The notes beneath the pieces were generated by a model. It saw only the letters and a program-made list of their open reading frames with translations. It did no database searches and was not told the origin of the DNA. 64,000 bases of DNA from Escherichia phage VpaE1_ev035. Shown here in pieces: positions 20,934-62,155 of this stretch; the first letter of the stretch is position 1; each line of letters begins with the position of its first letter. The stretch lies in sequence record LR699048, one strand, 5' to 3'. The position numbers were made by a program, and so were the translations under genes.

Positions 20934-20960
20934 AAAATAAAAAAGGCTCCCGAAGGAGCC
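20934..20960 (-). terminator. rho-independent terminator downstream of lysozyme gene
   Basis: GGCTCC-CGAA-GGAGCC hairpin; on minus strand followed by U6. Confidence 0.65.
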
Positions 20961-20970
20961 TATGAAGATA

Positions 20971-21435
20971 TTACTTTGGGTATACACTGTCAAGATAAAT
21001 GTCAGCTTCCATTCTACGTCTGTTTTTCAGGCCGTTTGAAGTAACCTTCTTACCTTTGACTGTAACCTTGTTCCACCACTGCATAGCTTCTGCACAACCA
21101 ACCTTATTACCAGCATTGTGGCGCTTGATAAATGTAGAGTCCTGCATAGCCGTGATACCAATGTTGTATGTTTCACTTACAAGTGCGTCAAACTCATTCT
21201 GAGAAGTTGGAACCTTGACGGCTTTGTTAACTGCTGCAACGAACTTTTCAACATCTGCGAGAAGATACTGTTCAGCTTGTTCAGCGGTAATTTTCATACC
21301 CATCTTAACAGGTTTACCAGCAATACGGATAGTCCCATACCCAATTGTGGGGATTCCAGCAGAATCTTCGTAAGCCTCAAGCTTAAGACCTTCAAAGAAC
21401 TTAATAGCTTCTAAACCTTTTCTTGAGAGTTGCAT
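20971..21435 (-). CDS. endolysin, glycoside hydrolase family 24 lysozyme
   Basis: Motif LEAIKFFEGLKLEAYEDSAGIPTIGYGT (catalytic E ... TIGYG) typical of T4/lambda-type lysozymes. Confidence 0.85.
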   Translation of the reverse strand: MQLSRKGLEAIKFFEGLKLEAYEDSAGIPTIGYGTIRIAGKPVKMGMKITAEQAEQYLLADVEKFVAAVNKAVKVPTSQNEFDALVSETYNIGITAMQDSTFIKRHNAGNKVGCAEAMQWWNKVTVKGKKVTSNGLKNRRRMEADIYLDSVYPK

Positions 21436-22571
21436 TATGCCTCCCCTGCTGGGTTAACTGTAACTGTTGCCGCATTAGATGTTACAGAGCCACCTGCACC
21501 AGTAACTACACAAGTGTAGCTTCCTGAATCAGCAGCGGTTGCACCTTCTTTGGTGTAAGTTGCAGTAGTTGCATCGAGGATGTCTTCCTCACCTTTCTTC
21601 CACTGGTAACCTGTCGCACCTGTTGCCACAACATTCAGCGTTAAGGTCTCACCTTCATTGATTTCTTGATTGGTTGGTTGCTGAGTGATTACTGGAAGTG
21701 CATTCACAGTAACTGTTGCTGCATTGGATGTGACTGTTGTACCACCAGCACCAGTAACTACACAGGTGTATGAACCTGCATCTGCTGGCAGCGCACCAGA
21801 CTTGCTATAGGTAGCCTCTGTAGCCGAAGGAATGTCAGAGCCATCTTTCTTCCACTGGTAACCCGTTGCACCCGTTGCAGTCACTTCCAAGCTGATGTTT
21901 CCACCCTCATTGATGGTCTGGCTAGAAGGTTGCTGTGTAATCACAGGCAGTGCGTTGACAGTAACTGTTGCCGCATCTGAGGTAACACTTGTACCAGCCT
22001 CTCCAGACACAACACAAGTATAAGAACCAGCATCAGAAGGTGCTACAGACTGTTTTGTGTAGGTTGCAGATGTGGCGCTAGTGATATCCTCACCATCTTT
22101 TTTCCATTGATATCCAGTGGCATTAGTTGCAATAACGCTTAGGGTAAGTGTGCCACCTTCATTTACTGTTTGATTGGTTGGTTGCTGAGTGATTGATGGT
22201 GGCTTGATAGCATCCTTCAACTTAGCATTCAACATTGAGAACGGTTTAACTCTTGCCAGCCATTCACAATAAACTGTGTCAACGTCTTTACCATTGATAA
22301 TTGCATATTGTAAGTCCATGAAGAAGTCAGAAGTTCTCATTTGAGCACCGATGCTGTAAAGCAACTCATCACTAAATGGGACTTTATAGTCTGGTTTGTA
22401 GTCAAACTTCTCAACTTCTGCAATATCAGCTTCAGGCCAATATGAACTATATGTGAGTGGTAAAATAGCCTCTTGATATGTTCTAAAATCATATCTCTTA
22501 CCAGCCTTTACATTTGCAACGAAGCCCTTCACAAACTCTTTGAAGTCTGGGTAAGTCTTTGCTTTAATCAT
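21435..22571 (-). CDS. protein with N-terminal domain paralogous to neighbour and three C-terminal Ig-like domains
   Basis: Three ~85-aa repeats ...ITQQP(T/S)NQ.INEGG...TGYQWKK(D/G)...AGSYTCVV(S/T)G..G(T/S)..S.AATVTVN, Ig-like G.Y.C signature; N-terminus aligns with 22568-22939 product. Confidence 0.6.
   Translation of the reverse strand: MIKAKTYPDFKEFVKGFVANVKAGKRYDFRTYQEAILPLTYSSYWPEADIAEVEKFDYKPDYKVPFSDELLYSIGAQMRTSDFFMDLQYAIINGKDVDTVYCEWLARVKPFSMLNAKLKDAIKPPSITQQPTNQTVNEGGTLTLSVIATNATGYQWKKDGEDITSATSATYTKQSVAPSDAGSYTCVVSGEAGTSVTSDAATVTVNALPVITQQPSSQTINEGGNISLEVTATGATGYQWKKDGSDIPSATEATYSKSGALPADAGSYTCVVTGAGGTTVTSNAATVTVNALPVITQQPTNQEINEGETLTLNVVATGATGYQWKKGEEDILDATTATYTKEGATAADSGSYTCVVTGAGGSVTSNAATVTVNPAGEA
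21440..22200 (-). repeat. three tandem ~250-bp coding repeats (Ig-like domain triplication)
   Basis: Near-repeated DNA units visible within CDS 21435-22571. Confidence 0.6.
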
Positions 22572-22939
22572 TTCTTTTTAGCCTCTAAATGTGCGTTTAG
22601 TCTAAAATAACCTTTGTGATGCGGAGATACATCACCAACAACAATGCCTTTAACCTTATAACCTTTACCAATTACATACTGGATATCCATAAGGAATCTT
22701 CCAAGTCCAACAATATGGAACATTGGATATAATAGATTCTCAGAATCTGGAATATTGATTTCAGGTTTGTAGGTGCGTTGTTCGCTTGTTGGTGTAATAT
22801 CTTCTTCAGGCCATTTACTGAGTCTCCATGTCAAAGGTGTTGGGATGACATCATTAAGGTTGTACCTTTCACCATTTTGCACGGAATTGATATAGGATTG
22901 TAGGAAGCAATAAAAGTCTTTTGCACTCTTAGCTTTCAT
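22568..22939 (-). CDS. hypothetical protein, paralog of the N-terminal domain of 21435-22571
   Basis: Shared blocks MKAK..DF..F...YIN.V..G.RY, WPE.DI, YKP...P.S..LLY, FLMD(I/L)QY(V/A)I. Confidence 0.5.
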   Translation of the reverse strand: MKAKSAKDFYCFLQSYINSVQNGERYNLNDVIPTPLTWRLSKWPEEDITPTSEQRTYKPEINIPDSENLLYPMFHIVGLGRFLMDIQYVIGKGYKVKGIVVGDVSPHHKGYFRLNAHLEAKKK

Positions 22940-22986
22940 TAAATATCCTTATAAATAGTTAAAGGGGCATCAGCCCCTATTCACAC

Positions 22987-23577
22987 TTAAGCTTTGGTCT
23001 TAAGTAGGTTCTTAAGTTTTTTAAGATTCATACTCTCATCAAACTTAAAACCAAATCCATTGACATAATCAATGAACTCGGATTTCTTACTGAGTGACAA
23101 TGCGTAACTCATATCAAAGTTCTTACTTGTTTCTGCGTCTGGACTAGAGTTCACATCAAATGAAATTTCTGTAGGCTCTTGCTTACTTTTTCTCATATTA
23201 TCAACCAACAAACATGTATAGTTTGCTGGATAGAAGTTTACACTACCATCAACGTAGCTGTACTTATTATTATGGATAAGGTTTGAAAATACCTTAAGGA
23301 ATGTTTCTGAGTCGTGGCAAACAAGTTTGAATTGGCTGCTCTCTCCAAGCGCAACTAATGAGTACGGACTTTCACTATCAAAGTCATAATTTGGATTCGA
23401 TGCCGTTACTGTTACACGCATCAAGTTATTAGCAATAGTCTTCTGTTTAAAAGAATTTTGAACGTAGTGAAGACCTCTATCACACTGATTGACTAGCTCT
23501 TTAAGCAGGTCATTTGCATATGGTGAATTAATTGATACAGAGCCATCACTATTGTAATTAAAACTTACTGTTAACAT
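22987..23577 (-). CDS. hypothetical protein
   Basis: ORF track, 196 aa. Confidence 0.5.
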   Translation of the reverse strand: MLTVSFNYNSDGSVSINSPYANDLLKELVNQCDRGLHYVQNSFKQKTIANNLMRVTVTASNPNYDFDSESPYSLVALGESSQFKLVCHDSETFLKVFSNLIHNNKYSYVDGSVNFYPANYTCLLVDNMRKSKQEPTEISFDVNSSPDAETSKNFDMSYALSLSKKSEFIDYVNGFGFKFDESMNLKKLKNLLKTKA

Positions 23578-24649: not shown

Positions 24650-26065
24650 ATGAGCGAATTATTTAAACATGCGCACCTTCATGCAGGTCGAACTGAAAAT
24701 GGTGCTGTAAACCATACTTCATCAATGTCTGCTCTTGTAGACTTTTACAAAGCTGCTGGTTCTAGCCGTAGCAACGTAGAAATCTTACCAGACCTGTTCT
24801 ACAAAGCTTTGCGTGAGGATGTTGATGTTGCAGTTCGTATTTTGCTTCATATGCGAGATGTACGAGAAGGTATGGGTGAGCGTAAAGCCTTCAGAACTGT
24901 TTTGCTTCAAGCAATTGAAGATAAAGTTTTAGAGCCTACACAGGTTCTTCGCATTATGGATAAGATTGCAGAACTTGGTCGTTTTGATGACTTCAAAATC
25001 TTCGTAGGTACTCGTTTCGAGACAGATGCCTTCAAACATTTAGAAGCAGCATTACTAGACCCTGCAACAGCAGGTTTGGCAGCCAAGTGGCTACCACGAG
25101 TCAAACCACGTCATAAGCAGTTTGTAAAACGTTTCTGCAAGTTTGCCAACTTGAGTGAGAAAGAGTACCGCACACTGTTGTCTGCACTATCTGATACAGT
25201 TGAGCAAAAAATCTCTGCTAATGAGTTTGGTAAGATTGACTACAGTAAGATTCCTTCACTTGCTGCTGCACGTTACCAAAACCTGTTTAACCGTAAAGAT
25301 GGAGAGCGTTACAAAGCTTACATCGAGTCCTTATCAAAAGGTGAGACTAAGATTAACGCTGGTGCTGTTTACCCATACGATGTGATTAAATCTGTCAAGT
25401 ATGGTAATGCAGATGTTGCTAATGAGCAGTGGAAATCACTACCAAACTGGATGGCAGAAGGTGAAAACATCTTGTGTATGTCTGATGTATCAAGTTCAAT
25501 GTCTTGGGTGAATTTTGGCTCCATTACTGCTCTGGATATTGGTGTATCACTTGCCTTGTATGTAGCAGAACGCAATACAGGTTGCTTTAAGGATGAGTTG
25601 ATGGTTTATTCAACAAACCCTCACTTCATCGAACTGAGTGGTGATTTACGAAACCGTCATCGTCAGGTGATGCGACACGTTGAATATGGCTCAACCAACT
25701 TACAAGCAGCTTTTGACCGCATTCTTGAGATAGGTAAGAGAAACAACTTGACTCAGGAAGATATGCCAAGTAAGCTTATCATCTTCTCCGATATGGAGTT
25801 CAATCAGGTTGATGGAGCTAACGGTCGTACAAACTTTGAAGCAATTCAGAGCAAGTACAAGAAAGCTGGATATGAGATGCCACAACTGGTATTCTGGTAC
25901 TTAGCAAACCGTAATGGTACTTGCGAAGTGTCTGTTAAGGATAACGGTGTAGCAATGGTATCTGGTTTCTCTCCCGCCACTTTAAAAGCTCTGCTTGGTG
26001 GTGAGAAGTTTGACCCAATCAGCGTAATGCTCAAAGCAGTAATGATTGACCGTTATATCTGGTAA
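24650..26065 (+). CDS. vWA (MIDAS) domain protein with N-terminal helical domain; candidate Ro60/TROVE-like or DUF2828-like protein
   Basis: C-terminal half carries the vWA MIDAS signature in order: CMSDVSSSM (DxSxS), GSTNLQAAF (GxT), LIIFSDMEF (D); N-terminal ~250 aa predicted helical; TROVE assignment is an inference from architecture only. Confidence 0.55.
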   Translation: MSELFKHAHLHAGRTENGAVNHTSSMSALVDFYKAAGSSRSNVEILPDLFYKALREDVDVAVRILLHMRDVREGMGERKAFRTVLLQAIEDKVLEPTQVLRIMDKIAELGRFDDFKIFVGTRFETDAFKHLEAALLDPATAGLAAKWLPRVKPRHKQFVKRFCKFANLSEKEYRTLLSALSDTVEQKISANEFGKIDYSKIPSLAAARYQNLFNRKDGERYKAYIESLSKGETKINAGAVYPYDVIKSVKYGNADVANEQWKSLPNWMAEGENILCMSDVSSSMSWVNFGSITALDIGVSLALYVAERNTGCFKDELMVYSTNPHFIELSGDLRNRHRQVMRHVEYGSTNLQAAFDRILEIGKRNNLTQEDMPSKLIIFSDMEFNQVDGANGRTNFEAIQSKYKKAGYEMPQLVFWYLANRNGTCEVSVKDNGVAMVSGFSPATLKALLGGEKFDPISVMLKAVMIDRYIW

Positions 26066-26230: not shown

Positions 26231-26307
26231 CTCTGTTTAGCTCAGCTTGGTAGAGCGTTCCGTTTGGGGCGGTAAGGCCGGAGGTTCAAGTCCTCCAACA
26301 GAGACCA
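26231..26307 (+). tRNA. tRNA-Pro (anticodon UGG)
   Basis: Manual cloverleaf: acceptor CTCTGTT/AACAGAG (C1-G72), D-arm AGCTCAGCTTGGTAGAGC, loop UUUGGGG, T-arm GGAGG-TTCAAGT-CCTCC, encoded CCA. Confidence 0.75.
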
Positions 26308-26314
26308 AATTAAT

Positions 26315-26392
26315 GTTCCAGTGGACAAAATGGTAAAGTCACCACTCTTTCAAAGTGGATATTTGAGGGTTCAAATCCCTTCTGGAACGCCA
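26315..26392 (+). tRNA. tRNA-Glu (anticodon UUC)
   Basis: Acceptor GTTCCAG/CTGGAAC, anticodon stem CCACT/AGTGG with loop CUUUCAA, T-loop TTCAAAT, CCA. Confidence 0.75.
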
Positions 26393-26397
26393 GTTTT

Positions 26398-26475
26398 GAC
26401 AGAAGACCAATTACAGCAAGTTTAATCTTATTCATCTGAAGGTAAATCGGACAAAGAAGAGATTTGGTCTGGTCA
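26398..26475 (+). ncRNA. conserved structured tRNA-spacer element, copy 1
   Basis: 5' box GACAGAAGACCAATTACAGCAAG and 3' box TTTGGTCTGGTC fold as lower helix GAC/GUC, internal loop AGA opposite G, upper helix AGACCAA/UUGGUCU; ~43-nt apical region. Confidence 0.45.
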
Positions 26476-26483
26476 TTAAGAAT

Positions 26484-26560
26484 TGCGGGTATAGAGAAAT
26501 GGCGTCTCACATGTCTCATTAGCATGGTATCGGCAGGTTCGACTCCTGCACCCGCCTCCA
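26484..26560 (+). tRNA. tRNA-Met or Ile2 (anticodon CAU), non-canonical 1:72 pair
   Basis: Anticodon stem CATGT/GCATG, loop CUCAUUA; T-arm GCAGG-TTCGACT-CCTGC; acceptor pairs 6/7 with position 1 unpaired; CCA. Confidence 0.55.
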
Positions 26561-26564
26561 ATTT

Positions 26565-26629
26565 TGCAGAAGACCGTATTCAGCAACAAAATACTTTTTG
26601 CGGATAAAAGAAAAAACACGGTCTGGCAA
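26565..26629 (+). ncRNA. conserved structured tRNA-spacer element, copy 2
   Basis: 5' box TGCAGAAGACCGTATTCAGCAAC, 3' box ACACGGTCTGGCA; lower helix UGC/GCA (compensatory vs copy 1), same AGA/G internal loop, upper helix AGACCGU/ACGGUCU. Confidence 0.45.
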
Positions 26630-26637
26630 TGTATTAA

Positions 26638-26714
26638 GGTTAGGAAGCACATAAGGTATGTGCGGTCGCCTGTTAAGCGAATGGCACAGGGTTCGAATCC
26701 CTGACTAACCGCCA
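26638..26714 (+). tRNA. tRNA-Asn (anticodon GUU)
   Basis: Acceptor GGTTAGG/ACTAACC, D-stem GCAC/GTGC, loop CUGUUAA, T-arm CAGGG-TTCGAAT-CCCTG, CCA. Confidence 0.75.
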
Positions 26715-26783
26715 AATTTAGGAGAGAAGCGATTGCTCACCGATTTGTAAGGTGCAAGTCCTTAGCCTGAATAGAAATTAAAT

Positions 26784-26871
26784 GTGTCGTTATCCCGTAG
26801 ATGGTAGCGGTGGGGACTGTAAATCCCTTGTCATTGAGACTCGGTAGGTTCGACTCCTACACGGCACACCA
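26784..26871 (+). tRNA. tRNA-Tyr (anticodon GUA), long variable arm
   Basis: Acceptor GTGTCGT/ACGGCAC, anticodon stem GGGA/TCCC with loop CUGUAAA, ~16-nt variable arm, T-arm GTAGG-TTCGACT-CCTAC, CCA. Confidence 0.7.
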
Positions 26872-26876
26872 ATAAA

Positions 26877-26954
26877 GGTTATGTAGTTTAATTTGGTTAA
26901 AATACTCCCCTGTCACGGGAGATGATGAGGGTTCAAATCCCTTCGTAACCGCCA
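26877..26954 (+). tRNA. tRNA-Asp (anticodon GUC)
   Basis: Acceptor GGTTATG/CGTAACC, anticodon stem CTCCC/GGGAG with loop CUGUCAC, T-loop TTCAAAT, CCA. Confidence 0.75.
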
Positions 26955-27012
26955 ATTTTGAGAGGGCTATTTAGCCCCTCCCTTAAAGGGTTCTTACGAG
27001 TATCCTTTAAAG

Positions 27013-27092
27013 GAGCAGAAGACCAAATACAGCAAGTTACTTAAAATTTCAAGCCAATTTAATTTTGAAAAATTTAAAACTTGGTCTGGCTC
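27013..27092 (+). ncRNA. conserved structured tRNA-spacer element, copy 3
   Basis: 5' box GAGCAGAAGACCAAATACAGCAAG, 3' box CTTGGTCTGGCTC; lower helix GAGC/GCUC, AGA/G internal loop, upper helix AGACCAA/UUGGUCU. Confidence 0.45.
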
Positions 27093-27097
27093 AACAA

Positions 27098-27236
27098 ATT
27101 TACAGAAGACCGTTTACAGCAAAACTTAAACAATCTATTTCTCGGTAAAGAAAAGGCGAAGGTTCGATTCCTTCACTCGGCAGATGTCGAGTTGGTGTAA
27201 TGGTAGCACTTAAGATGATAAACAACGGTCTGGTAA
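27098..27236 (+). ncRNA. conserved structured tRNA-spacer element, copy 4, enclosing a circularly permuted tRNA-like module (Y RNA/YrlA-like architecture)
   Basis: 5' box TTTACAGAAGACCGTTTACAGCAA, 3' box AACGGTCTGGTAA (lower helix UUAC/GUAA, upper helix 8 bp); apical region 27158-27210 holds T-arm GAAGG-TTCGATT-CCTTC, then acceptor 3' strand ACTCGGC joined by a short loop to acceptor 5' strand GTCGAGT, then D-arm GTG-TAATGGTAG-CAC; no anticodon arm. Confidence 0.45.
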
Positions 27237-27382
27237 TTATCTTTGTAGATAAGTTATTAAGCTTACCTGTGAGTATGCGACCACAAAGGGTGAAAGGGTA
27301 AATTCTAGATTTAAACCCAAAAAGGCACATCGCTACAGACCTTAAGCAAGTCTGGGTAGCTTATCTACAAAGATAATTTAAT

Positions 27383-27458
27383 GGAAGTGTAGCAGAATGG
27401 TGATGCGGCAGACTTTTAATCTGACAGGCGATGGGTTCGAATCCCTCCACTTCTACCA
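27383..27458 (+). tRNA. tRNA-Lys (anticodon UUU)
   Basis: Acceptor GGAAGTG/CACTTCT, loop CUUUUAA, T-loop TTCGAAT, CCA; T-stem has mismatches. Confidence 0.6.
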
Positions 27459-27462
27459 ATAT

Positions 27463-27539
27463 GGTTCAGTCGCAGATAAGGTAATGCAAGGGTCTCGTAA
27501 GCCCTATGAATGTGGGTTCGAATCCCATCTGAACCTCCA
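27463..27539 (+). tRNA. tRNA-Thr (anticodon CGU)
   Basis: Acceptor GGTTCAG/CTGAACC, anticodon stem AGGGT/GCCCT with loop CUCGUAA, T-arm GTGGG-TTCGAAT-CCCAT, CCA. Confidence 0.7.
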
Positions 27540-27541
27540 AT

Positions 27542-27616
27542 TGTGGGTTAGCATAAATGGTAATGCAAACGGCTGATAACCGTTAGAAGAGGGTTCGATA
27601 CCCTCACCTACAACCA
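27542..27616 (+). tRNA. tRNA-Ile (anticodon GAU)
   Basis: Acceptor TGTGGGT/ACCTACA, anticodon stem AACGG/CCGTT with loop CUGAUAA, T-arm GAGGG-TTCGATA-CCCTC, CCA. Confidence 0.7.
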
Positions 27617-27631
27617 AGTTCAATAAAGTTG

Positions 27632-27660
27632 TTGACATTGAGATGTGACTACTTTATAGT
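27632..27660 (+). promoter_or_regulatory. sigma70-like promoter inside tRNA array (TTGACA-N17-TATAGT)
   Basis: -35 27632-27637, 17-nt spacer, -10 27655-27660. Confidence 0.5.
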
Positions 27661-27864
27661 AACCTTAGTTTTCGTTGCGTAGCGTCTATTTTGCAAATTT
27701 AAAATAAATGCAAACGACAATGTTTTTCTGGCAGTAGCTTGATAGGCTAAACACCAGTGAGGTCTTCCAATCCCTCATCAAAGAATTTGGCGTACTCGCC
27801 CACGGTATGATTAATAAGGTGGGCATCTTTAAGGGCTTTCTAAGAGAGTCTTTAAAGATAATTA

Positions 27865-27946
27865 CGGGGCGTATCTCAGCGGTCTTCTAAACCGCCGTTA
27901 ACCGAGTAAGTGGAGTATGCGGGTTCGAGTCCTGCCGCCTCGACCA
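27865..27946 (+). tRNA. tRNA-Arg-like (anticodon UCU) with aberrant D-arm and enlarged variable region
   Basis: Acceptor CGGGGCG/CGCCTCG, anticodon stem GCGGT/ACCGC with loop CUUCUAA, T-arm GCGGG-TTCGAGT-CCTGC, CCA; D-region does not fold canonically. Confidence 0.45.
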
Positions 27947-28089
27947 ATTTAGTTAGCAGATTACTTAGACGACCTAAGCGGGTCTTCCTGTAGGGAGGTG
28001 GTCTGTATCTCATGTTTTCCAGAACATGTAAATAATCTGAGAAGGGGCTTTACAGTGTTGAGATAATACGGTAAGCTTCGAATTATAGT

Positions 28090-28172
28090 ATGGGACGATG
28101 TTAAGACTCTAAGGCATGAGCAACGGCCTCCAAAACCGTTTCAAAGGGGTTCAACTCCTCCGTCCCATGCCA
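28090..28172 (+). tRNA. tRNA-Trp (anticodon CCA) with expanded D-region
   Basis: Perfect 7-bp acceptor ATGGGAC/GTCCCAT, anticodon loop CUCCAAA (as in E. coli tRNA-Trp), T-loop TTCAACT, CCA; ~6 extra nt before the anticodon stem. Confidence 0.5.
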
Positions 28173-28185
28173 AAGTCTTATTAGG

Positions 28186-28275
28186 GGTAGGTAGCGGCTA
28201 ATGGTAGCCAAACTGTCTTGAAAACAGTTGCCACTGTAGAGATACGGTGAGGGTTCGACTCCTTTACTTACCGCC
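28186..28275 (+). tRNA. tRNA-Ser (anticodon UGA), long variable arm, CCA apparently not encoded
   Basis: Acceptor GGTAGGT/ACTTACC, D-stem GGC/GCC, anticodon stem ACTGT/ACAGT with loop CUUGAAA, long variable arm, T-loop TTCGACT. Confidence 0.6.
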
Positions 28276-28531
28276 TAATAAGATTTAAAGCCAAGCTTCA
28301 TTCGGATGTTGCTTTGGTATCCCTCGTGTATTGTCGTACACGCACAGTAAAGCACCTAGTAGGTGTCACGGAGAAGAGATAATATCAAGCTCTCCAAAGG
28401 TTCTAGTCACCGGATTAAACAAGACTATGCAAAGACCAAATTAGGTCTTTTTAGAGGGCTTCTAAGGTTATTACAGCTTGTTGTGGAACCTTGTTGCTTA
28501 GGTTCTTAGAAGTTCTCTAAAAAGATTTAAT

Positions 28532-28609
28532 GGGAGATTGATGGTAATTGGTAAACCTATCTCGCTTAGAACGAGATGTTTGAGGGTTCGAATCCCTTGT
28601 CTCCTACCA
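28532..28609 (+). tRNA. tRNA with Leu anticodon UAG but short variable arm (type-I architecture)
   Basis: Acceptor GGGAGAT/GTCTCCT, anticodon stem TCTCG/CGAGA with loop CUUAGAA, 5-nt variable loop, T-arm GAGGG-TTCGAAT-CCCTT, A73, CCA. Confidence 0.55.
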
Positions 28610-28616
28610 AATTAAT

Positions 28617-28692
28617 GCAGGTGTAGCAAAATGGTTATGCGGCTGACTCTTAATCAGTAAGACGATGGGTTCAATTCCCTCCACCTGTACCA
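28617..28692 (+). tRNA. tRNA-Lys (anticodon CUU)
   Basis: Acceptor GCAGGTG/CACCTGT, anticodon stem GCTGA/TCAGT with loop CUCUUAA, T-loop TTCAATT, CCA. Confidence 0.55.
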
Positions 28693-28698
28693 AAAAAT

Positions 28699-28774
28699 GG
28701 GGTCATAGTTTATATGGTTAAAATTCGAGTTTTGCAAACTTGGGAACTGAGTTCAATTCTCAGTGACTCCACCA
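28699..28774 (+). tRNA. tRNA-Ala (anticodon UGC)
   Basis: Acceptor GGGGTCA/TGACTCC, loop UUUGCAA, T-arm CTGAG-TTCAATT-CTCAG, CCA. Confidence 0.7.
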
Positions 28775-28780
28775 ATTAGT

Positions 28781-28855
28781 GCATCCATAGTTTAAACGGG
28801 AAAATTACAGTCTTCCAAACTGAGGTTGAGGGTTCGATTCCCTCTGGATGCTCCA
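28781..28855 (+). tRNA. tRNA-Gly (anticodon UCC)
   Basis: Perfect acceptor GCATCCA/TGGATGC, loop CUUCCAA, T-arm GAGGG-TTCGATT-CCCTC, CCA. Confidence 0.75.
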
Positions 28856-28861
28856 AATAAT

Positions 28862-28937
28862 GCTCCTATCGTATAATTGGCTATTACGGTTGCCTTGTAA
28901 GCAACTTATCAGGGTTCGAATCCTTGTGGGAGCACCA
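28862..28937 (+). tRNA. tRNA-Thr (anticodon UGU)
   Basis: Acceptor GCTCCTA/TGGGAGC, anticodon stem GTTGC/GCAAC with loop CUUGUAA, T-arm CAGGG-TTCGAAT-CCTTG, CCA. Confidence 0.75.
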
Positions 28938-29032
28938 ATTCAGAGGTCAAGTGAAAGACCGCTGGTGTCAACTGAAGACCGTAACAAATTCCACGGAGTT
29001 GAGTTAGCGGCACAACTTCAGACCTCTTTCAC
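28938..29032 (+). ncRNA. candidate structured RNA between tRNA-Thr(UGU) and tRNA-Val
   Basis: Multiple complementary segments (GAGGTC/GACCTC, GTGAAAG/CTTTCAC, CTGAAG/CTTCAG); contains a GAAGACCG box related to the spacer elements; no tRNA fold. Confidence 0.3.
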
Positions 29033-29107
29033 ACTCGCTTAGTTTATATGGTAAAACATCACCCTTACAAGATGAAGAAAAAGGTTCAAGTCCTTTAGTG
29101 AGTACCA
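29033..29107 (+). tRNA. tRNA-Val (anticodon UAC)
   Basis: Acceptor ACTCGCT/AGTGAGT, loop CUUACAA, T-arm AAAGG-TTCAAGT-CCTTT, CCA. Confidence 0.65.
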
Positions 29108-29108
29108 T

Positions 29109-29186
29109 GTTCCAGTATCCCAATTGGCAGAGGATGCAAGCTCAAACCTTGTACTAGTGACGGTTCGAATCCGTCTTGGAACACCA
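29109..29186 (+). tRNA. tRNA with Leu anticodon CAA but short variable arm (type-I architecture)
   Basis: Acceptor GTTCCAG/TTGGAAC, anticodon stem GCAAG/CTTGT with loop CUCAAAC, T-arm GACGG-TTCGAAT-CCGTC, A73, CCA. Confidence 0.55.
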
Positions 29187-29191
29187 ATTTT

Positions 29192-29267
29192 GCAGGATTA
29201 GTTCAAATGGATAGAGCAACAGTCTACGAAGCTGTTAATAGGGGTTCGAATCCCTTATCCTGCACCA
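29192..29267 (+). tRNA. tRNA-Arg (anticodon ACG)
   Basis: Perfect acceptor GCAGGAT/ATCCTGC, D-arm GTTCAAATGGATAGAGC, loop CUACGAA, T-arm AGGGG-TTCGAAT-CCCTT, CCA. Confidence 0.8.
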
Positions 29268-29285
29268 GATAAGCAAGAGGAATTT

Positions 29286-29528
29286 ATGCAAACATTAATC
29301 GTCGTTGAACATGAAAATTCCAATAGTATTGAGTTTGTAAGGGTTCCCACTATAGATACCCACATTTTCTTAAAAGTCGGATGGGAATGCGACCCAATAA
29401 AAGTAGAAAGATTTATTGGTCATTGCTTTGGTGGAAGACAACTTAAAAGTGTCAATTTTGAGACAATGTTACCAGAAAGCTCAGAAACAAGTAATAATGC
29501 TTACCTCCTTACGAGGGTTAGACAATGA
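29286..29528 (+). CDS. hypothetical protein (inside tRNA array)
   Basis: ORF track, ATG with AGAGG RBS. Confidence 0.4.
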   Translation: MQTLIVVEHENSNSIEFVRVPTIDTHIFLKVGWECDPIKVERFIGHCFGGRQLKSVNFETMLPESSETSNNAYLLTRVRQ

Positions 29529-30082
29529 GATACTTAAAATATGCTTCATGGATTTTCTTAGCTTTGCTAGAACCACTTGCAGCAATACTAGCAGTTATCT
29601 TAGCACCTTTCGTAGTTCCATTCTACAGTGAGAAGAAAGGACATCTACCTTTTGGATTCAGATGGATGGAGACCTATGACAACCCAATTGATGGTGATGA
29701 AGGTCACGTTAAAAGATGGGCTAATATTAGATGGATTGGTAAACTAGGTGTCTACATGCAAAGAGTTGGATGGCTCTGGAGAAACAAAGCTTATAACTTC
29801 TCTTACCATGTGTTAGGAAGAGATGTAAAAGATGTTACTAAGTGGAAAGGTAATATCAACGTAAGTTCTAACCCTGAAGATAATCAGACTGGTTATCTCC
29901 TAATGTGGAACAGGAATGCTTGGGGATTATTCGCTTTTATCCCATCAATTAAAATCTTTGGTAAACAATTTTACTGGAGAATTTATATTGGATGGAAACT
30001 AAAAAGTGTTGTCCCAGAAGAAAGAGCATTCTCAAGGGAAAGAGTTATGTTGGCATTCTTTATTCATCCACTGAGAAAGTAA
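29525..30082 (+). CDS. hypothetical membrane protein (inside tRNA array)
   Basis: N-terminal hydrophobic segment IFLALLEPLAAILAVILAPFVV; Trp-rich. Confidence 0.45.
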   Translation: MRYLKYASWIFLALLEPLAAILAVILAPFVVPFYSEKKGHLPFGFRWMETYDNPIDGDEGHVKRWANIRWIGKLGVYMQRVGWLWRNKAYNFSYHVLGRDVKDVTKWKGNINVSSNPEDNQTGYLLMWNRNAWGLFAFIPSIKIFGKQFYWRIYIGWKLKSVVPEERAFSRERVMLAFFIHPLRK

Positions 30083-30090
30083 AGATTTAA

Positions 30091-30166
30091 AGGGGATTAG
30101 TTTACAAGGTTAAAACCTCGGTCTTTGAAATCGAAGAAGTTGGTTCAATTCCAACATCCCCCGCCA
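30091..30166 (+). tRNA. tRNA-Gln (anticodon UUG)
   Basis: Acceptor AGGGGAT/ATCCCCC (1:72 unpaired), anticodon stem TCGGT/ATCGA with loop CUUUGAA, T-arm GTTGG-TTCAATT-CCAAC, CCA. Confidence 0.65.
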
Positions 30167-30168
30167 AT

Positions 30169-30247
30169 GCTCCATTACTCCAATTGGCAGAGAGGCCAGA
30201 CTTAAAATCTGTGTTATGTATCGGTTCGAATCCGATATGGAGTACCA
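30169..30247 (+). tRNA. tRNA with Leu anticodon UAA but short variable arm (type-I architecture)
   Basis: Acceptor GCTCCAT/ATGGAGT, anticodon stem CCAGA/TCTGT with loop CUUAAAA, T-arm ATCGG-TTCGAAT-CCGAT, A73, CCA. Confidence 0.55.
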
Positions 30248-30252
30248 AATTT

Positions 30253-30328
30253 AGCGGTATAGCATAACTGGCAATGCAGCAGTCTCTGAAGCTGTCTTAT
30301 TAAGGTTCAAATCCTTATGCCGCTGCCA
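30253..30328 (+). tRNA. tRNA-Gln (anticodon CUG)
   Basis: Acceptor AGCGGTA/TGCCGCT, anticodon stem GCAGT/GCTGT (two G-U pairs) with loop CUCUGAA, T-arm TAAGG-TTCAAAT-CCTTA, CCA. Confidence 0.6.
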
Positions 30329-30359
30329 CTTCTAAGGGTTCTTACGAGAGTCCTTAAAT

Positions 30360-30435
30360 GTGGCCTTATCATAAATGGTAATGACCCATGCTGTGAACAT
30401 GGTCTATACGGGTTCAAATCCCGTAGGTCACCCCA
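30360..30435 (+). tRNA. tRNA-His (anticodon GUG)
   Basis: Acceptor GTGGCCT/AGGTCAC, perfect anticodon stem CCATG/CATGG with loop CUGUGAA, T-arm ACGGG-TTCAAAT-CCCGT, discriminator C73, CCA. Confidence 0.75.
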
Positions 30436-30440
30436 ATTTA

Positions 30441-30517
30441 TAGTCCAAGTAGCTTATATGGTTAAAGCGCGTGTCTGAAAAACATGAGAAGAGGGTTCAA
30501 ATCCCACTGGACTACCA
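30441..30517 (+). tRNA. tRNA-Phe (anticodon GAA)
   Basis: Acceptor TAGTCCA/TGGACTA, anticodon stem CGTGT/ACATG with loop CUGAAAA, T-loop TTCAAAT; exact ends uncertain. Confidence 0.6.
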
Positions 30518-30533
30518 ATTTCAAAGGTGCTTA

Positions 30534-31268
30534 ATGAAAGAGATGACAGAACAAGGTAAGGAGATTTTTAATCTCTTAAAAACTGGTAAAGGGTTCTCTA
30601 ATCCCCTTATTACTGGTGCAGCAGTTCTCGGTGGAACCGTAGCTGCCTCTATATCACTTGTAAGCTCTATTAGCTCTGTAACAGACCCTACAATAAAAGA
30701 TAAACTTGTTGCTGCTGGACTTACAACAGTTCTGCTTAACAGCTTTACAACGAGTCTGACAAGCACTACATCAACTACCAAAACGCTAACGGATTATGGT
30801 CAAAAATCCATTGATGAGTTTTCATCACGTATGCAGGTAGCAAAAGGTTATTCTAATGTTATGGGTGCAGCAGGGGAGCAAGTTGGTTGTACACCGTTTA
30901 GTGGTATTATGGGCGTTGCTACAGAATATGGTCAAAAAGCTATTGACACAATTAACAGTGCACTAGATGGCGTTAATGATGTGTTAAGTGACTTACAAGA
31001 TGCTATTGATAATGGTCTTGATACTGTTTCTGATTTAGCTAACCAAGCTGTCAGTAAGATTAATGAAGGTATCTCAAAGATTACAGCTTATGCAGATGAA
31101 GTTGTGCAGATGATTGAAGAAGAGGCTGCCCTTATTGCAGAGTACCTTAAAACGAATATCAATGGGTTCTTAGCAGGTATCTTACCAGACTGGTTTGATG
31201 ATGCCTGTAAAACTGGTGTAATTGACACTATTGCAACACCAGAAATGAAGAGCGCATTACAGAAATAA
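30534..31268 (+). CDS. hypothetical protein (inside tRNA array)
   Basis: ORF track frame 30471..31268 starts inside tRNA-Phe; first ATG after the tRNA at 30534; Ser/Thr/Ala-rich with helical C-terminus. Confidence 0.5.
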   Translation: MKEMTEQGKEIFNLLKTGKGFSNPLITGAAVLGGTVAASISLVSSISSVTDPTIKDKLVAAGLTTVLLNSFTTSLTSTTSTTKTLTDYGQKSIDEFSSRMQVAKGYSNVMGAAGEQVGCTPFSGIMGVATEYGQKAIDTINSALDGVNDVLSDLQDAIDNGLDTVSDLANQAVSKINEGISKITAYADEVVQMIEEEAALIAEYLKTNINGFLAGILPDWFDDACKTGVIDTIATPEMKSALQK

Positions 31269-31269
31269 T

Positions 31270-31360
31270 GGAAGATTAACCCTAAAAGGTAAGGGAGCAG
31301 TTTGCTAAACTGCCAGTAGCTGAGAAATCGGTGTACCAGTTCAAGTCTGGTATCTTCCTC
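31270..31360 (+). tRNA. tRNA-Ser (anticodon GCU), long variable arm
   Basis: Perfect acceptor GGAAGAT/ATCTTCC, D-stem CCC/GGG, perfect anticodon stem GCAGT/ACTGC with loop UUGCUAA, ~20-nt variable arm, T-arm ACCAG-TTCAAGT-CTGGT, CCA. Confidence 0.8.
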
Positions 31361-31367
31361 CAATTTT

Positions 31368-31443
31368 GAATCCGTGACAGAAATGGATATGTGCCTGTCT
31401 GCAAAACAGGTTTATAAGGGTTCAAGTCCCTTCGGATTCTCCA
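31368..31443 (+). tRNA. tRNA-Cys (anticodon GCA)
   Basis: Perfect acceptor GAATCCG/CGGATTC, perfect anticodon stem CCTGT/ACAGG with loop CUGCAAA, T-arm AAGGG-TTCAAGT-CCCTT, CCA. Confidence 0.8.
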
Positions 31444-37584: not shown

Positions 37585-38694
37585 ATGTTGACTAATTCTG
37601 AAAAAAGCAGATTTTTCCTTGCTGACCTGACTGGTGAAGTCCAGTCTATCCCAAATACTTATGGGTATATTTCCAACTTAGGTCTGTTCCGTTCAGCACC
37701 AATCACCCAAACTACTTTCCTTATGGACTTGACTGATTGGGATGTTAGCTTGCTTGATGCGGTAGACCGTGATAGCCGTAAAGCAGAGACTAGCGCACCT
37801 GAGCGTGTTCGTCAAATCAGCTTCCCAATGATGTACTTCAAAGAAGTTGAAAGCATCACTCCTGATGAAATTCAGGGTGTACGTCAGCCAGGCACTGCAA
37901 ACGAACTGACTACTGAAGCTGTAGTACGTGCTAAGAAGCTGATGAAGATTCGTACCAAGTTCGATATTACTCGTGAGTTCCTGTTTATGCAAGCTCTGAA
38001 GGGTAAAGTTGTTGATGCTCGTGGTACTCTGTATGCTGACCTGTACAAGCAGTTCGACGTTGAGAAGAAAACTGTTTACTTCGACCTTGACAACCCTAAT
38101 GCTGACATCGACGCTTCTATTGAAGAACTGCGTATGCACATGGAAGACGAAGCTAAGACTGGCACTGTAATCAACGGTGAAGAAATTCACGTAGTTGTTG
38201 ACCGTGTATTCTTCAGCAAACTGGTTAAGCATCCTAAGATTCGTGACGCTTATCTTGCACAGCAGACTCCGCTGGCTTGGCAACAGATTACTGGTTCTCT
38301 GAGAACTGGTGGTACTGACGGCGTTCAGGCTCACATGAACACCTTCTACTACGGTGGTGTTAAGTTTGTCCAGTACAACGGTAAGTTCAAAGACAAGCGT
38401 GGTAAGGTTCATACTCTGGTTAGTATTGATGGTGTTACTCAGGATGGAACTGTAGGTGTAGGTCATGCTTTCCCTAACGTTTCTATGCTGGGTGAAGCAA
38501 ACAACATCTTCGAAGTGGCATATGGCCCATGTCCTAAGATGGGTTATGCAAATACTCTGGGTCAGGAACTGTACGTATTCGAATACGAAAAAGACCGTGA
38601 CGAAGGTATTGACTTTGAAGCTCACTCTTACATGCTGCCATACTGCACACGTCCTCAGTTGCTGGTAGATGTTCGTTCTGACGCTCAAGAATAA
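37585..38694 (+). CDS. major capsid protein
   Basis: 369-aa ORF directly after protease/scaffold; strongly biased codon usage consistent with very high expression; fold family not determined. Confidence 0.75.
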   Translation: MLTNSEKSRFFLADLTGEVQSIPNTYGYISNLGLFRSAPITQTTFLMDLTDWDVSLLDAVDRDSRKAETSAPERVRQISFPMMYFKEVESITPDEIQGVRQPGTANELTTEAVVRAKKLMKIRTKFDITREFLFMQALKGKVVDARGTLYADLYKQFDVEKKTVYFDLDNPNADIDASIEELRMHMEDEAKTGTVINGEEIHVVVDRVFFSKLVKHPKIRDAYLAQQTPLAWQQITGSLRTGGTDGVQAHMNTFYYGGVKFVQYNGKFKDKRGKVHTLVSIDGVTQDGTVGVGHAFPNVSMLGEANNIFEVAYGPCPKMGYANTLGQELYVFEYEKDRDEGIDFEAHSYMLPYCTRPQLLVDVRSDAQE

Positions 38695-60861: not shown

Positions 60862-61962
60862 TTACTCATAATCCCTAATAACTAACCCAACAGGGAACTG
60901 TAAAGACCCCTTACGAGTCATCTTCTGGAACTGAACCGTTAAAGGCTTCCCGATAAACTCTTCAGGATGCTCAGCCAGATACTGCTTTTTCTCATGAGTG
61001 GTTTTCCATGAGACATCTACAAAGACGTTAGGAAGAGTCTCTACAACGAACTTACCATGACCACGTTTATCAGTCTTTACACCAGTTACTTTAAACTCTT
61101 CAGTGTGCATCTTCTTGTGCTTAATCAAGAAGTATGAACGGTGACAACACTCATAGAAGGAGTCTTCAGAGATTGAACGGTACATTGCACCTTCAAACTT
61201 AGCTTCAACCCACTTATCATGAGCTTCATCAAATTCTTCCCAAGAATTTACACGGATAGTCTGCACAGGAACAACTCTACAGGTATCCCCAAGCTCAACA
61301 ATAGGTGAGTTATCAATAACTTCACGACGCTCAGGCCAAGATTTTGAATTGTCACAGATATCATACCAGTAGAATTTAAGAAGGTGACGGTCTGGATTGT
61401 CAGCATTCTTAATCATAGACACAATATCTTCTAAGTCCCAACCATGAGCATAAATCTCTCCATCAAAGTCTTCAACTTGCGGATGTAATTTAAGCAACAA
61501 AAGTAAGTCTGGTATTAGTTCTGCTGGAACGTTGTAAACAGTATTCTCACGAGAATAAGCTGTGAAACCGACTGAATCAGCATCTCTTGAAATTCTACAA
61601 CGTACACCATCCAGTTTCGGTTGAGCATCAGCAGGGAACTTCAGATACTTTGCATGACTAACCTTTGCAGCATCATGAGCAAGCTGTACACCTACCTTCT
61701 CAGTATTCTGTGCAGACTCTTTTGTGTAAGCATACCCTTTACGGTCAACTTGCTTTTTATACTTAGCAGCAACTTCAAAGAGAGCTTGCTGTTCAGCATT
61801 ACGCTCATTCTTTTTACCGATGTTTTTAGGTTCTGCTGTATACTCTTCAAACATCATCTTGCCATTTTCTTTGCCATAGGTTGTAATAACCTTGTCACCT
61901 ACAGCAGTACATGACCAGATGTTAAAAGAGCCATCTTTATTTTGTTTGTACAGTATTGTCAT
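60862..61962 (-). CDS. ATP-dependent DNA ligase
   Basis: Motif I PKLDGVRC (KxDG), motif III FDGEIY, motif V EGAMYR; ATG at 61960-61962 with AGAGGA RBS (track frame starts at 61998). Confidence 0.85.
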   Translation of the reverse strand: MTILYKQNKDGSFNIWSCTAVGDKVITTYGKENGKMMFEEYTAEPKNIGKKNERNAEQQALFEVAAKYKKQVDRKGYAYTKESAQNTEKVGVQLAHDAAKVSHAKYLKFPADAQPKLDGVRCRISRDADSVGFTAYSRENTVYNVPAELIPDLLLLLKLHPQVEDFDGEIYAHGWDLEDIVSMIKNADNPDRHLLKFYWYDICDNSKSWPERREVIDNSPIVELGDTCRVVPVQTIRVNSWEEFDEAHDKWVEAKFEGAMYRSISEDSFYECCHRSYFLIKHKKMHTEEFKVTGVKTDKRGHGKFVVETLPNVFVDVSWKTTHEKKQYLAEHPEEFIGKPLTVQFQKMTRKGSLQFPVGLVIRDYE

Positions 61963-61963
61963 T

Positions 61964-62155
61964 TTATTCCTCTGAGTGATACCAAGTATTGCAAGCATTA
62001 CATGCGTAAAGCTCTAAATCATTTTTATCTGGTTTATGAAAACAGTTTGCTCCGCAGTGGCAACGAAACGGTTTTCCACCAACTGTCAGGATGAAGGATT
62101 GAACCTTTCCATCAGGAGTTCGTACAGCATTTTTATGCTTATCTTCTTTGTTCAT
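61964..62155 (-). CDS. small zinc-finger protein
   Basis: CHCGANC ... CNAC Cys clusters. Confidence 0.4.
   Translation of the reverse strand: MNKEDKHKNAVRTPDGKVQSFILTVGGKPFRCHCGANCFHKPDKNDLELYACNACNTWYHSEE

Follow-up and report, generated by a model that had tools for sequence, protein, structure and literature searches.

A putative hexamer-centre capsid decoration protein with a recombining immunoglobulin-like string, and its tandem paralog, in a Felix O1-like phage

Organization of the locus

We analysed a stretch of 64,000 nucleotides (nt) from Escherichia phage VpaE1_ev035 (sequence record LR699048; hereafter the window, to which all positions refer), focusing on a block of three minus-strand genes that encode a 123-amino-acid (aa) protein (22568–22939), a 378-aa protein with immunoglobulin-like (Ig) repeats (21435–22571) and an endolysin (20971–21435). 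An earlier note, made from the letters of the window alone, had described the first two genes as tandem paralogs beside the endolysin; both open reading frames (ORFs) are present at these positions, and the final gene of the block adjoins them and encodes a 154-aa endolysin of the T4-lysozyme type (PF00959, E 4e-41; phrog_7). The 378-aa protein (phrog_3995, E 1e-212), which databases often call a 'tail protein', is identified below as an orthologue of the capsid decoration protein Hex-Dec. The 123-aa protein (phrog_4463; gp42 of wV8, gp21 of Sf14 and ORF81 of Felix O1), hereafter the paralog, corresponds to the capsid-binding domain (CapBD) only.

The three genes are tightly packed: the paralog and Hex-Dec ORFs overlap by the four nucleotides ATGA (22568–22571), and the Hex-Dec stop codon and the endolysin ATG have one base in common (21435). 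Upstream, a GC hairpin on the minus strand (AGGGGC-TGAT-GCCCCT; 22963–22978) lies between a gene for a 196-aa protein and the paralog gene; it is conserved in alignments and is a rho-independent terminator in the wV8 annotation, and a simple terminator scan of the window does not call it. Downstream, a strong terminator-like hairpin with a T-run (20944–20961, minus strand) directly follows the endolysin gene and is also a terminator in the wV8 annotation. A terminator scan of the block found none between the paralog, Hex-Dec and endolysin genes. Because the genes overlap by 4 nt and 1 nt and no internal terminator lies between the flanking hairpins, the block looks like a single transcription unit. 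An intergenic motif, CTATTTATAAGG, showed no informative sharing with other gene starts.

The DNA of the locus is 95–97% identical to that of many Felixounavirus genomes (LF82P2, wV8, finno and others) and the sequence assigns the window to a Felix O1-like myophage of the genus Felixounavirus. The order of 196-aa ORF, paralog, Ig protein and endolysin is common to wV8, Felix O1, SUT_S920, Moogle, SUSP2 and Sf14, and the endolysin gene follows the Hex-Dec gene in every Ounavirinae locus examined.

Identification of the 378-aa protein

Searching the PDB with the 378-aa protein (phmmer) returned chain S of 9NCF (460 aa, 'Immunoglobulin-like domain protein'; E 1.3e-299) and chain S of 9C2D/9C3A (372 aa; E 4.2e-168); both alignments begin at residue 1 and extend over the full length. 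The first entry is the capsid reconstruction of phage Bas63, in which the protein was named Hex-Dec (Sci Adv 2025, PMC12609058), and 9C2D is that of Shigella phage Sf14, in which it was named gp20 (Commun Biol 2025, PMC11821841). Cryo-electron microscopy (cryo-EM) of these capsids revealed a monomer whose N-terminal ~118–122 residues are seated in the hexamer centre of a T=9 capsid and whose Ig domains are too mobile for resolution; the monomer is confined to hexamers that adjoin pentamers, along the facet edges, with a single copy in each asymmetric unit (PMC12609058, PMC11821841). In Sf14, Arg79 and Arg107 of gp20 form salt bridges to Asp221 of three subunits of the major capsid protein (MCP) (PMC11821841).

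These anchoring residues are retained in the window. Its Hex-Dec protein has both R79 and R107, and its MCP (37585–38694, plus strand; 9ncf_A, E 1e-244; 9c2d_A, E 9e-235), the binding partner of Hex-Dec, has at position 221 the aspartate that is also found in 9ncf_A and 9c2d_A and to which the anchoring role was assigned (PMC11821841). Furthermore, the two-Ig orthologue of Felix O1, gp36 (31.6 kDa), was detected in purified virions by mass spectrometry (14 peptides, 44% coverage); as early as 2010 it had been remarked that the gene for this 'tail protein' lies far from those for morphogenesis. On the basis of this homology, we assign gene 21435–22571 as a Hex-Dec orthologue, that is, a Hoc-like decoration protein of the hexamer centre. 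The suggestion of a Hoc-like virion decoration in the earlier note is thus borne out by orthologues that were seen on hexamer centres by cryo-EM and, in Felix O1, recovered from virions. The identity of the protein, its capsid location and its variable number of Ig domains (1–4) had already been published in 2025.

By homology to the solved structures, each pentamer-adjacent hexamer of a T=9 capsid would hold in its acidic centre a single CapBD of the window protein, anchored through Arg79 and Arg107 to Asp221 of the MCP; with one copy per asymmetric unit, a virion would carry about 60 Hex-Dec molecules. The three C-terminal I-set Ig domains would point away from the capsid as an acidic, flexible string. 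If T4 Hoc is taken as a guide, such a string may let the virion adhere weakly to glycans, to mucus or to cell surfaces, or mediate contacts between virions; a role in capsid stabilization is not proposed for it.

The resemblance to T4 Hoc extends to a hexamer-centre monomer that is non-essential and acidic and carries a string of three Ig-like domains, and true membership of the Hoc family could be argued from three 'Hoc-like head decoration' PHROGs that match the 378-aa protein (2973, 4069 and 3945), from T4-like hoc genes that align at 33–35% identity over the Ig region (tblastn), and from the identical position and equal number of Ig domains in the two proteins. However, only the Ig units resemble the PHROGs and the hoc genes, Hex-Dec binds the capsid through an N-terminal domain and Hoc through a C-terminal one, and the CapBD of Hex-Dec, with its pseudo-C2 symmetry, exceeds that of Hoc in size, differs from it in topology and has minimal sequence in common with Hoc (PMC12609058). 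No Hoc chain was found among the top PDB sequence matches of the CapBD. Because the similarity is limited to the Ig units, the capsid-binding domain lies at the other end and the topology is distinct, we regard T4 Hoc as an analogue of Hex-Dec and consider a shared family very improbable.

The label of tail protein or major tail subunit that most GenBank records carry ('HK97 major tail subunit' in Felix O1) is effectively refuted. Major-tail PHROGs (158, 853 and 3575) and major tail proteins with Ig domains from T5 and Vibrio phages do match the 378-aa protein, but the tail-family matches are confined to residues ~96–296, that is, to the Ig units, whereas the N-terminal part has no tail-tube fold match, matches only capsid-bound chains and was seen by cryo-EM on the capsid hexamers of two phages. 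The gene is ~9 kb away from the tail module and on the other strand. Both structure papers treat the label as wrong (PMC12609058, PMC11821841), and the one on Bas63 explicitly rejects it as a mis-annotation (PMC12609058).

Domain architecture and comparison with related proteins

The CapBD of the window protein (aa 1–122, with Arg79 and Arg107; 22206–22571, minus strand) is 98% identical to 9ncf_S over the part that was modelled. It is followed by three units (84, 84 and 86 aa) with a period of 252 bp, all encoded on the minus strand: unit 1 (aa 125–208, I-set type; 21948–22199), unit 2 (aa 209–292; 21696–21947) and unit 3, which includes the C-terminal tail PAGEA (aa 293–378; 21438–21695). 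Pfam profiles match in three stretches each (Ig_3, E 5e-34; I-set, E 1e-25; Ig_2, E 2e-24), and the Pfam scan gave no match to Big_2 in the 378-aa protein. An AF2 model of the Ig region has high pLDDT values (89–97) over all three units, each of which is a beta-sandwich, and its best Foldseek matches are the multi-Ig chains LRIG1, Robo1/2 and titin I67–I69 (TM 0.65). The earlier note had read three Ig-like domains from ~250-bp DNA repeats and had named I-set and Big_2 as candidate families: the Ig fold is present by both profile (I-set/Ig_3) and structure prediction, so the reading is not refuted, and the type is I-set/Ig_3, not Big_2. The Ig string is acidic (pI ~4.1); the CapBD has a pI of 5.5.

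Profile searching over 1.84 billion representative sequences was uninformative on the CapBD, as the sequence weighting admitted the Ig columns (211 positions). The Ig-column profile gave 59,926 matches (E ≤ 0.001), among them giant proteins of 2,000–7,400 aa with up to 70 matched repeats; the I-set-type unit of the phage thus belongs to a very large pool of multi-Ig proteins, presumably of bacterial surfaces. Homologue searches that started from the CapBD, from the paralog or from an alignment of the CapBD alone found nothing beyond Ounavirinae-type proteins.

Hex-Dec of Bas63 (Escherichia phage JohannRWettstein) is the same gene in the same genus, with a CapBD 98% identical to that of the window and an almost identical MCP. 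Of the four Ig units of Bas63, units 1, 2 and 4 are the counterparts of window units 1, 2 and 3, respectively, at 95% identity each, whereas Bas63 unit 3 (60–69% identical to the others) is missing from the window. Sf14 gp20, from a Mooglevirus, has the same architecture of a CapBD, with R79/R107 conserved, and three I-set units, and the same neighbourhood (gp22, gp21 (the paralog), gp20 and gp19 (lysin)), but is more divergent (CapBD ~85% and Ig units 54–69% identical). T5 pb10 (PDB 5LXK, 8ZVI) has the same domain order and a homologous Ig domain (5LXK, E 7e-12), but only one such domain, and the match comprises the Ig part only (8zvi_a residues 80–159), with no CapBD similarity detected.

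Among more distant orthologues, that of Kolesnikvirus ('structural protein' of Erwinia phage Hena2, 206 aa; L007:2441–3061) has a CapBD that is 36–39% identical, and keeps the equivalent of R79 and the position just 5′ of the endolysin gene. It differs in that one Big_2 domain (PF02368, E 3e-20) replaces the I-set units and that no CapBD-only paralog lies upstream. The orthologue of Hafnia phage SarahDanielle (L008:2501–3466) is 321 aa long, and its C-terminal ~200 aa have no Pfam match. Given a Big_2 domain or an unmatched C terminus on a conserved CapBD, the display module appears to have been swapped on a constant capsid anchor among these relatives.

Variation in the number of Ig units

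The Ig units of the window protein are ~71% identical to one another in protein and 67–71% identical in gapped DNA alignments. Without gaps and in register, DNA identity between units is 59–64%, compared with 26.3 ± 2.9% (maximum 38.5%) for random pairs (~20,000 pairs of 252-nt stretches from the window), and self-similarity has its maxima exactly at offsets of 252 and 504; the three-unit pattern is far beyond chance. Tandem Repeats Finder did not report the 252-bp units; together with a generic repeat finder, it caught just the 37-nt conserved ends of the units. The longest exact runs common to units are 14–25 nt, and identity between units at third codon positions is 33–46%, compared with 65–80% at positions 1 and 2. 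Such low third-codon identity marks the units as old duplications that have been maintained by selection at the protein level, and as poor substrates for slippage.

One to four Ig domains have been reported among Felixounaviruses (PMC12609058, PMC11821841), and our comparison of repeat copy number among related phages, as proposed in the earlier note, fits this range of 1–4 units. In a spread sample of 60 of the 220 phage genomes with a megablast match, classed by the span of the match, ~24 had three units (1134 nt), 22 had two (~885 nt), 9 had one (~633 nt) and none had four; three-unit genes being most frequent in the sample, the window has the commonest form. A separate homologue search for Hex-Dec gave nearly all 1-Ig forms (~210 aa) and was unusable for the distribution of copy number.

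Hybrid units provide a record of how these numbers changed. Unit 2 of Felix O1 equals unit 2 of wV8 over nt 1–103, with zero mismatches, and from nt ~75 it matches unit 3 of wV8; the crossover falls inside a 29-nt stretch, GGTGCGACAGGTTACCAGTGGAAGAAAG (encoding GATGYQWKK), that is identical in wV8 units 2 and 3. In vB_CECAV_041, the only unit combines pieces of units 1, 2 and 3. In 1-Ig alleles from metagenomes, the switch from unit 1 to the last unit occurs after GYQWKK (P0027), TYTK (P0028) or SYTCVV (P0009). As the breakpoints differ among hybrid units, the variants would have arisen by several independent events of in-register, unequal homologous recombination at short islands of identity, for which the expected breakpoint sites are GGTTACCAGTGGAAGAAAG and the unit-end stretches. 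The idea, put forward in the earlier note, that domain number is prone to slippage therefore holds in part: copy number is labile, but the mechanism would be recombination at short identity and not slippage. The Sf14 study left undecided whether host-gene capture or loss was the source of variation in Ig number (PMC11821841); the hybrid units point to intragenic recombination.

In Shigella phage Z31, which also carries a remnant of the paralog (see below), the Hex-Dec gene (L010:1501–2073) is annotated as two ORFs (405 and 168 nt), which suggests a frameshift or a sequencing error inside a 1-Ig allele.

The CapBD-only paralog

The paralog and the N-terminal ~120 residues of Hex-Dec are 36% identical over 101 aa (BLASTP, E 7e-17). 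The paralog matches both phrog_4463 (E 3e-80) and phrog_3995 (E 6e-15), and Hex-Dec in return matches phrog_4463; in the PDB, the paralog finds, over its whole length, the same chains as Hex-Dec (9ncf_S residues 3–117, E 1e-11; 9c2d_S, E 5e-11). Both proteins match these chains over residues ~1–118, and the N-terminal domain that the earlier note proposed for both is thus indeed common to them. An AF2 model of the paralog, of moderate confidence (pLDDT 66.6, pTM 0.67), has significant Foldseek matches to 9ncf_S and 9c2d_S only (E 6e-4 and 7e-4; TM ~0.6), with the next match at E 0.9. The protein ends after the CapBD and has no Ig-like domain and no Pfam match, and its length is 122–124 aa across the family. 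Positions of the hydrophobic core are common to paralog and CapBD (F10, F13, W45, Y58, Y72, Q88/Y89 and LN114–115). Neither anchoring arginine is kept: an invariant Gly aligns with R79, and His or Gln with R107. The paralog is basic (pI 9.1, compared with 5.5 for the CapBD). Another 378-aa ORF in the window (60862–61998, minus strand) was considered as a third copy and rejected: it is unrelated and, as is typical of DNA ligases, contains a KxDG nucleotidyl-transferase motif (QPKLDGVR).

Intact copies of the paralog occur in 232 phage records; the paralog query has a match of any kind in 252, and 254 have a near-full-length CapBD. The paralog ranges over Felixounavirus, Mooglevirus and Suspvirus (73–100% identity) and is absent in Kolesnikvirus (Erwinia phages, SeKF_13) and in a Hafnia phage, in which the Hex-Dec orthologue directly follows the 196-aa-type gene. 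Bit scores between the paralog and the Felix-type CapBD (53–68) are higher than those between the paralog and the Kolesnikvirus CapBD (32–42), and the two CapBD types score 57–65 against each other. This pattern fits, without proving, a duplication in the ancestor of Felixounavirus, Mooglevirus and Suspvirus that was followed by fast divergence. A record labelled 'Staphylococcus phage SA1' (GU169904.1, 147 kb) contains a Felix O1-like block of paralog, Hex-Dec and lysin genes at ~88–99% identity, and is probably a mixed or chimeric assembly.

The paralog is under purifying selection (ratio of non-synonymous to synonymous substitution rates (dN/dS) 0.05–0.19, with dS up to ~1.2). Between genera its dN is ~2 times that of the CapBD, and its C-terminal half is almost invariant within the family. 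Being under purifying selection, the paralog appears to be functional. Four phages (vB_CECAV_041, Z31, REP7 and fBSPA4), whose countries of origin include Spain, China, the USA and India, carry the same decayed remnant, in which the start codon ATG is changed to ATA and a ~219-nt internal deletion is accompanied by small indels that differ among the phages; the adjacent CapBD is intact. As at least four phages are viable with the paralog reduced to a pseudogene, it is dispensable. We also considered recombination between paralog and CapBD at a 21-nt near-repeat as the origin of paralog-less phages and rejected it, as both paralog ends survive in the remnant and the CapBD is intact and not chimeric.

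Possible roles of the paralog

The paralog is not in the published list of Felix O1 virion proteins. The running text of the VpaE1 report, as distinct from its protein table, names gp54, gp58 and gp68 as virion proteins additional to those of Felix O1, and none of these is apparently the paralog. The asymmetric unit of Sf14 comprises gp34, gp33 and gp20, and gp21, though encoded by Sf14, appears neither there nor in Table 1 of that study (PMC11821841). In Bas63, no density was found on the remaining hexamers (PMC12609058). Neither 'paralog' nor 'gp21' is mentioned in the two structure papers (PMC12609058, PMC11821841). The paralog would be a tandem duplicate of the CapBD alone, translationally coupled to Hex-Dec, that lost both anchoring arginines and turned basic; it is probably a functional accessory protein and not a stoichiometric component of the virion. 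Our best guess, held with low confidence, is a non-virion accessory that is co-expressed with Hex-Dec and either makes transient contact with capsomers or Hex-Dec or has taken on a new role.

A capsid-associated role seems unlikely. In one form of it, the paralog would be a morphogenetic or regulatory partner that binds transiently at hexamer centres (in procapsids or at the 20 three-fold hexamers) or binds Hex-Dec itself; this is a doubtful proposition, and if true it would explain why Hex-Dec is found on only 60 of the 80 hexamers, and the paralog-null phages (REP7, Z31, fBSPA4 and vB_CECAV_041) would show altered Hex-Dec occupancy. Slightly less probable again is that the paralog serves as a second, Ig-less decoration protein at sites left empty by Hex-Dec (the 20 three-fold hexamers, hexamers of the procapsid or some unique vertex), or that it competes with Hex-Dec and thereby sets its occupancy. 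The CapBD fold of the paralog, its basic charge (pI 9.1) opposite an Asp-lined hexamer centre, its translational coupling to Hex-Dec, the purifying selection on it and the unexplained lack of Hex-Dec on three-fold hexamers would all suit such a role. However, Bas63 shows no density elsewhere and no gp21 was modelled in Sf14, the paralog is missing from the Felix O1 virion list and the VpaE1 running text names no paralog-like protein, both anchoring arginines are replaced, and phages with the pseudogene are viable. A decaying, functionless duplicate is disfavoured as highly improbable: the pseudogenes in at least four phages and the ~2-fold greater non-synonymous change relative to the CapBD between genera would fit decay, but an intact ORF of 122–124 aa persists in 232 of 252 records across three genera with dN/dS of 0.05–0.19 at dS up to ~1.2, and the nearly invariant C-terminal half is contrary to it.

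Taken jointly, a Hex-Dec orthologue, a number of Ig units that changes by recombination and a functional but dispensable paralog that is not a detectable virion component very probably form the best explanation of the locus. Several points weigh against it. The capsid location is transferred from orthologues, to which the CapBD is 98% (Bas63) and ~85% (Sf14) identical, and the function of the Ig string has not been tested in any member of the Ounavirinae (PMC12609058, PMC11821841). As for the timing of expression, the block is presumably expressed late, because two of its products act late; a promoter scan found no sigma-70-like promoter 5′ of the paralog or the block, and a literature search found no Felixounavirus transcriptome paper. 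With respect to the paralog, the lack of further density in Bas63 bears on it only if Bas63 encodes it, and absence from a proteome is weak evidence for a small, basic protein of 14 kDa, the Felix O1 list having used a 25% coverage cut-off. Icosahedral averaging would also hide binding at low occupancy or at a unique site, and the net positive charge of the paralog would suit the acidic hexamer pore.

Neighbouring genes

Directly 5′ of the Hex-Dec block lies the 196-aa ORF (22987–23577, minus strand; phrog_4034), which has no Pfam match. It is present in every Ounavirinae locus examined, paralog-less loci included, and is strongly constrained (dN/dS 0.04–0.14). Farther away, a TROVE/Ro-like 'RNA-binding protein' gene (24650–26065, plus strand; DUF2828, DUF7788 and a weak vWA match; phrog_850) lies directly 5′ of a 25-gene tRNA array (26231–31443, plus strand). 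An additional tRNA-like element (27865–27943) scores 31.7 bits in Rfam and has no ARAGORN call. A scan at Rfam gathering thresholds turned up no Y-RNA-like partner of the TROVE/Ro-like gene, and no further search for one was made.

Implications

The main feature of the locus leaves the field unchanged, as it was published in 2025 for Sf14 (Commun Biol) and Bas63 (Sci Adv). The additions here are the evidence from recombinant units for change in Ig number and the characterization of the CapBD-only paralog. For the family, the 'tail protein' label on most of ~250 related genomes is wrong. With the readable hybrid units comes a set of natural alleles in which nearly isogenic capsids bear one, two, three or four Ig domains, and this set could serve to test Ig display in therapeutic Felix O1-like phages. 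Finally, a copy of the CapBD that is conserved, under selection and yet dispensable would offer a cheap experimental handle on how Hex-Dec chooses one class of hexamers.

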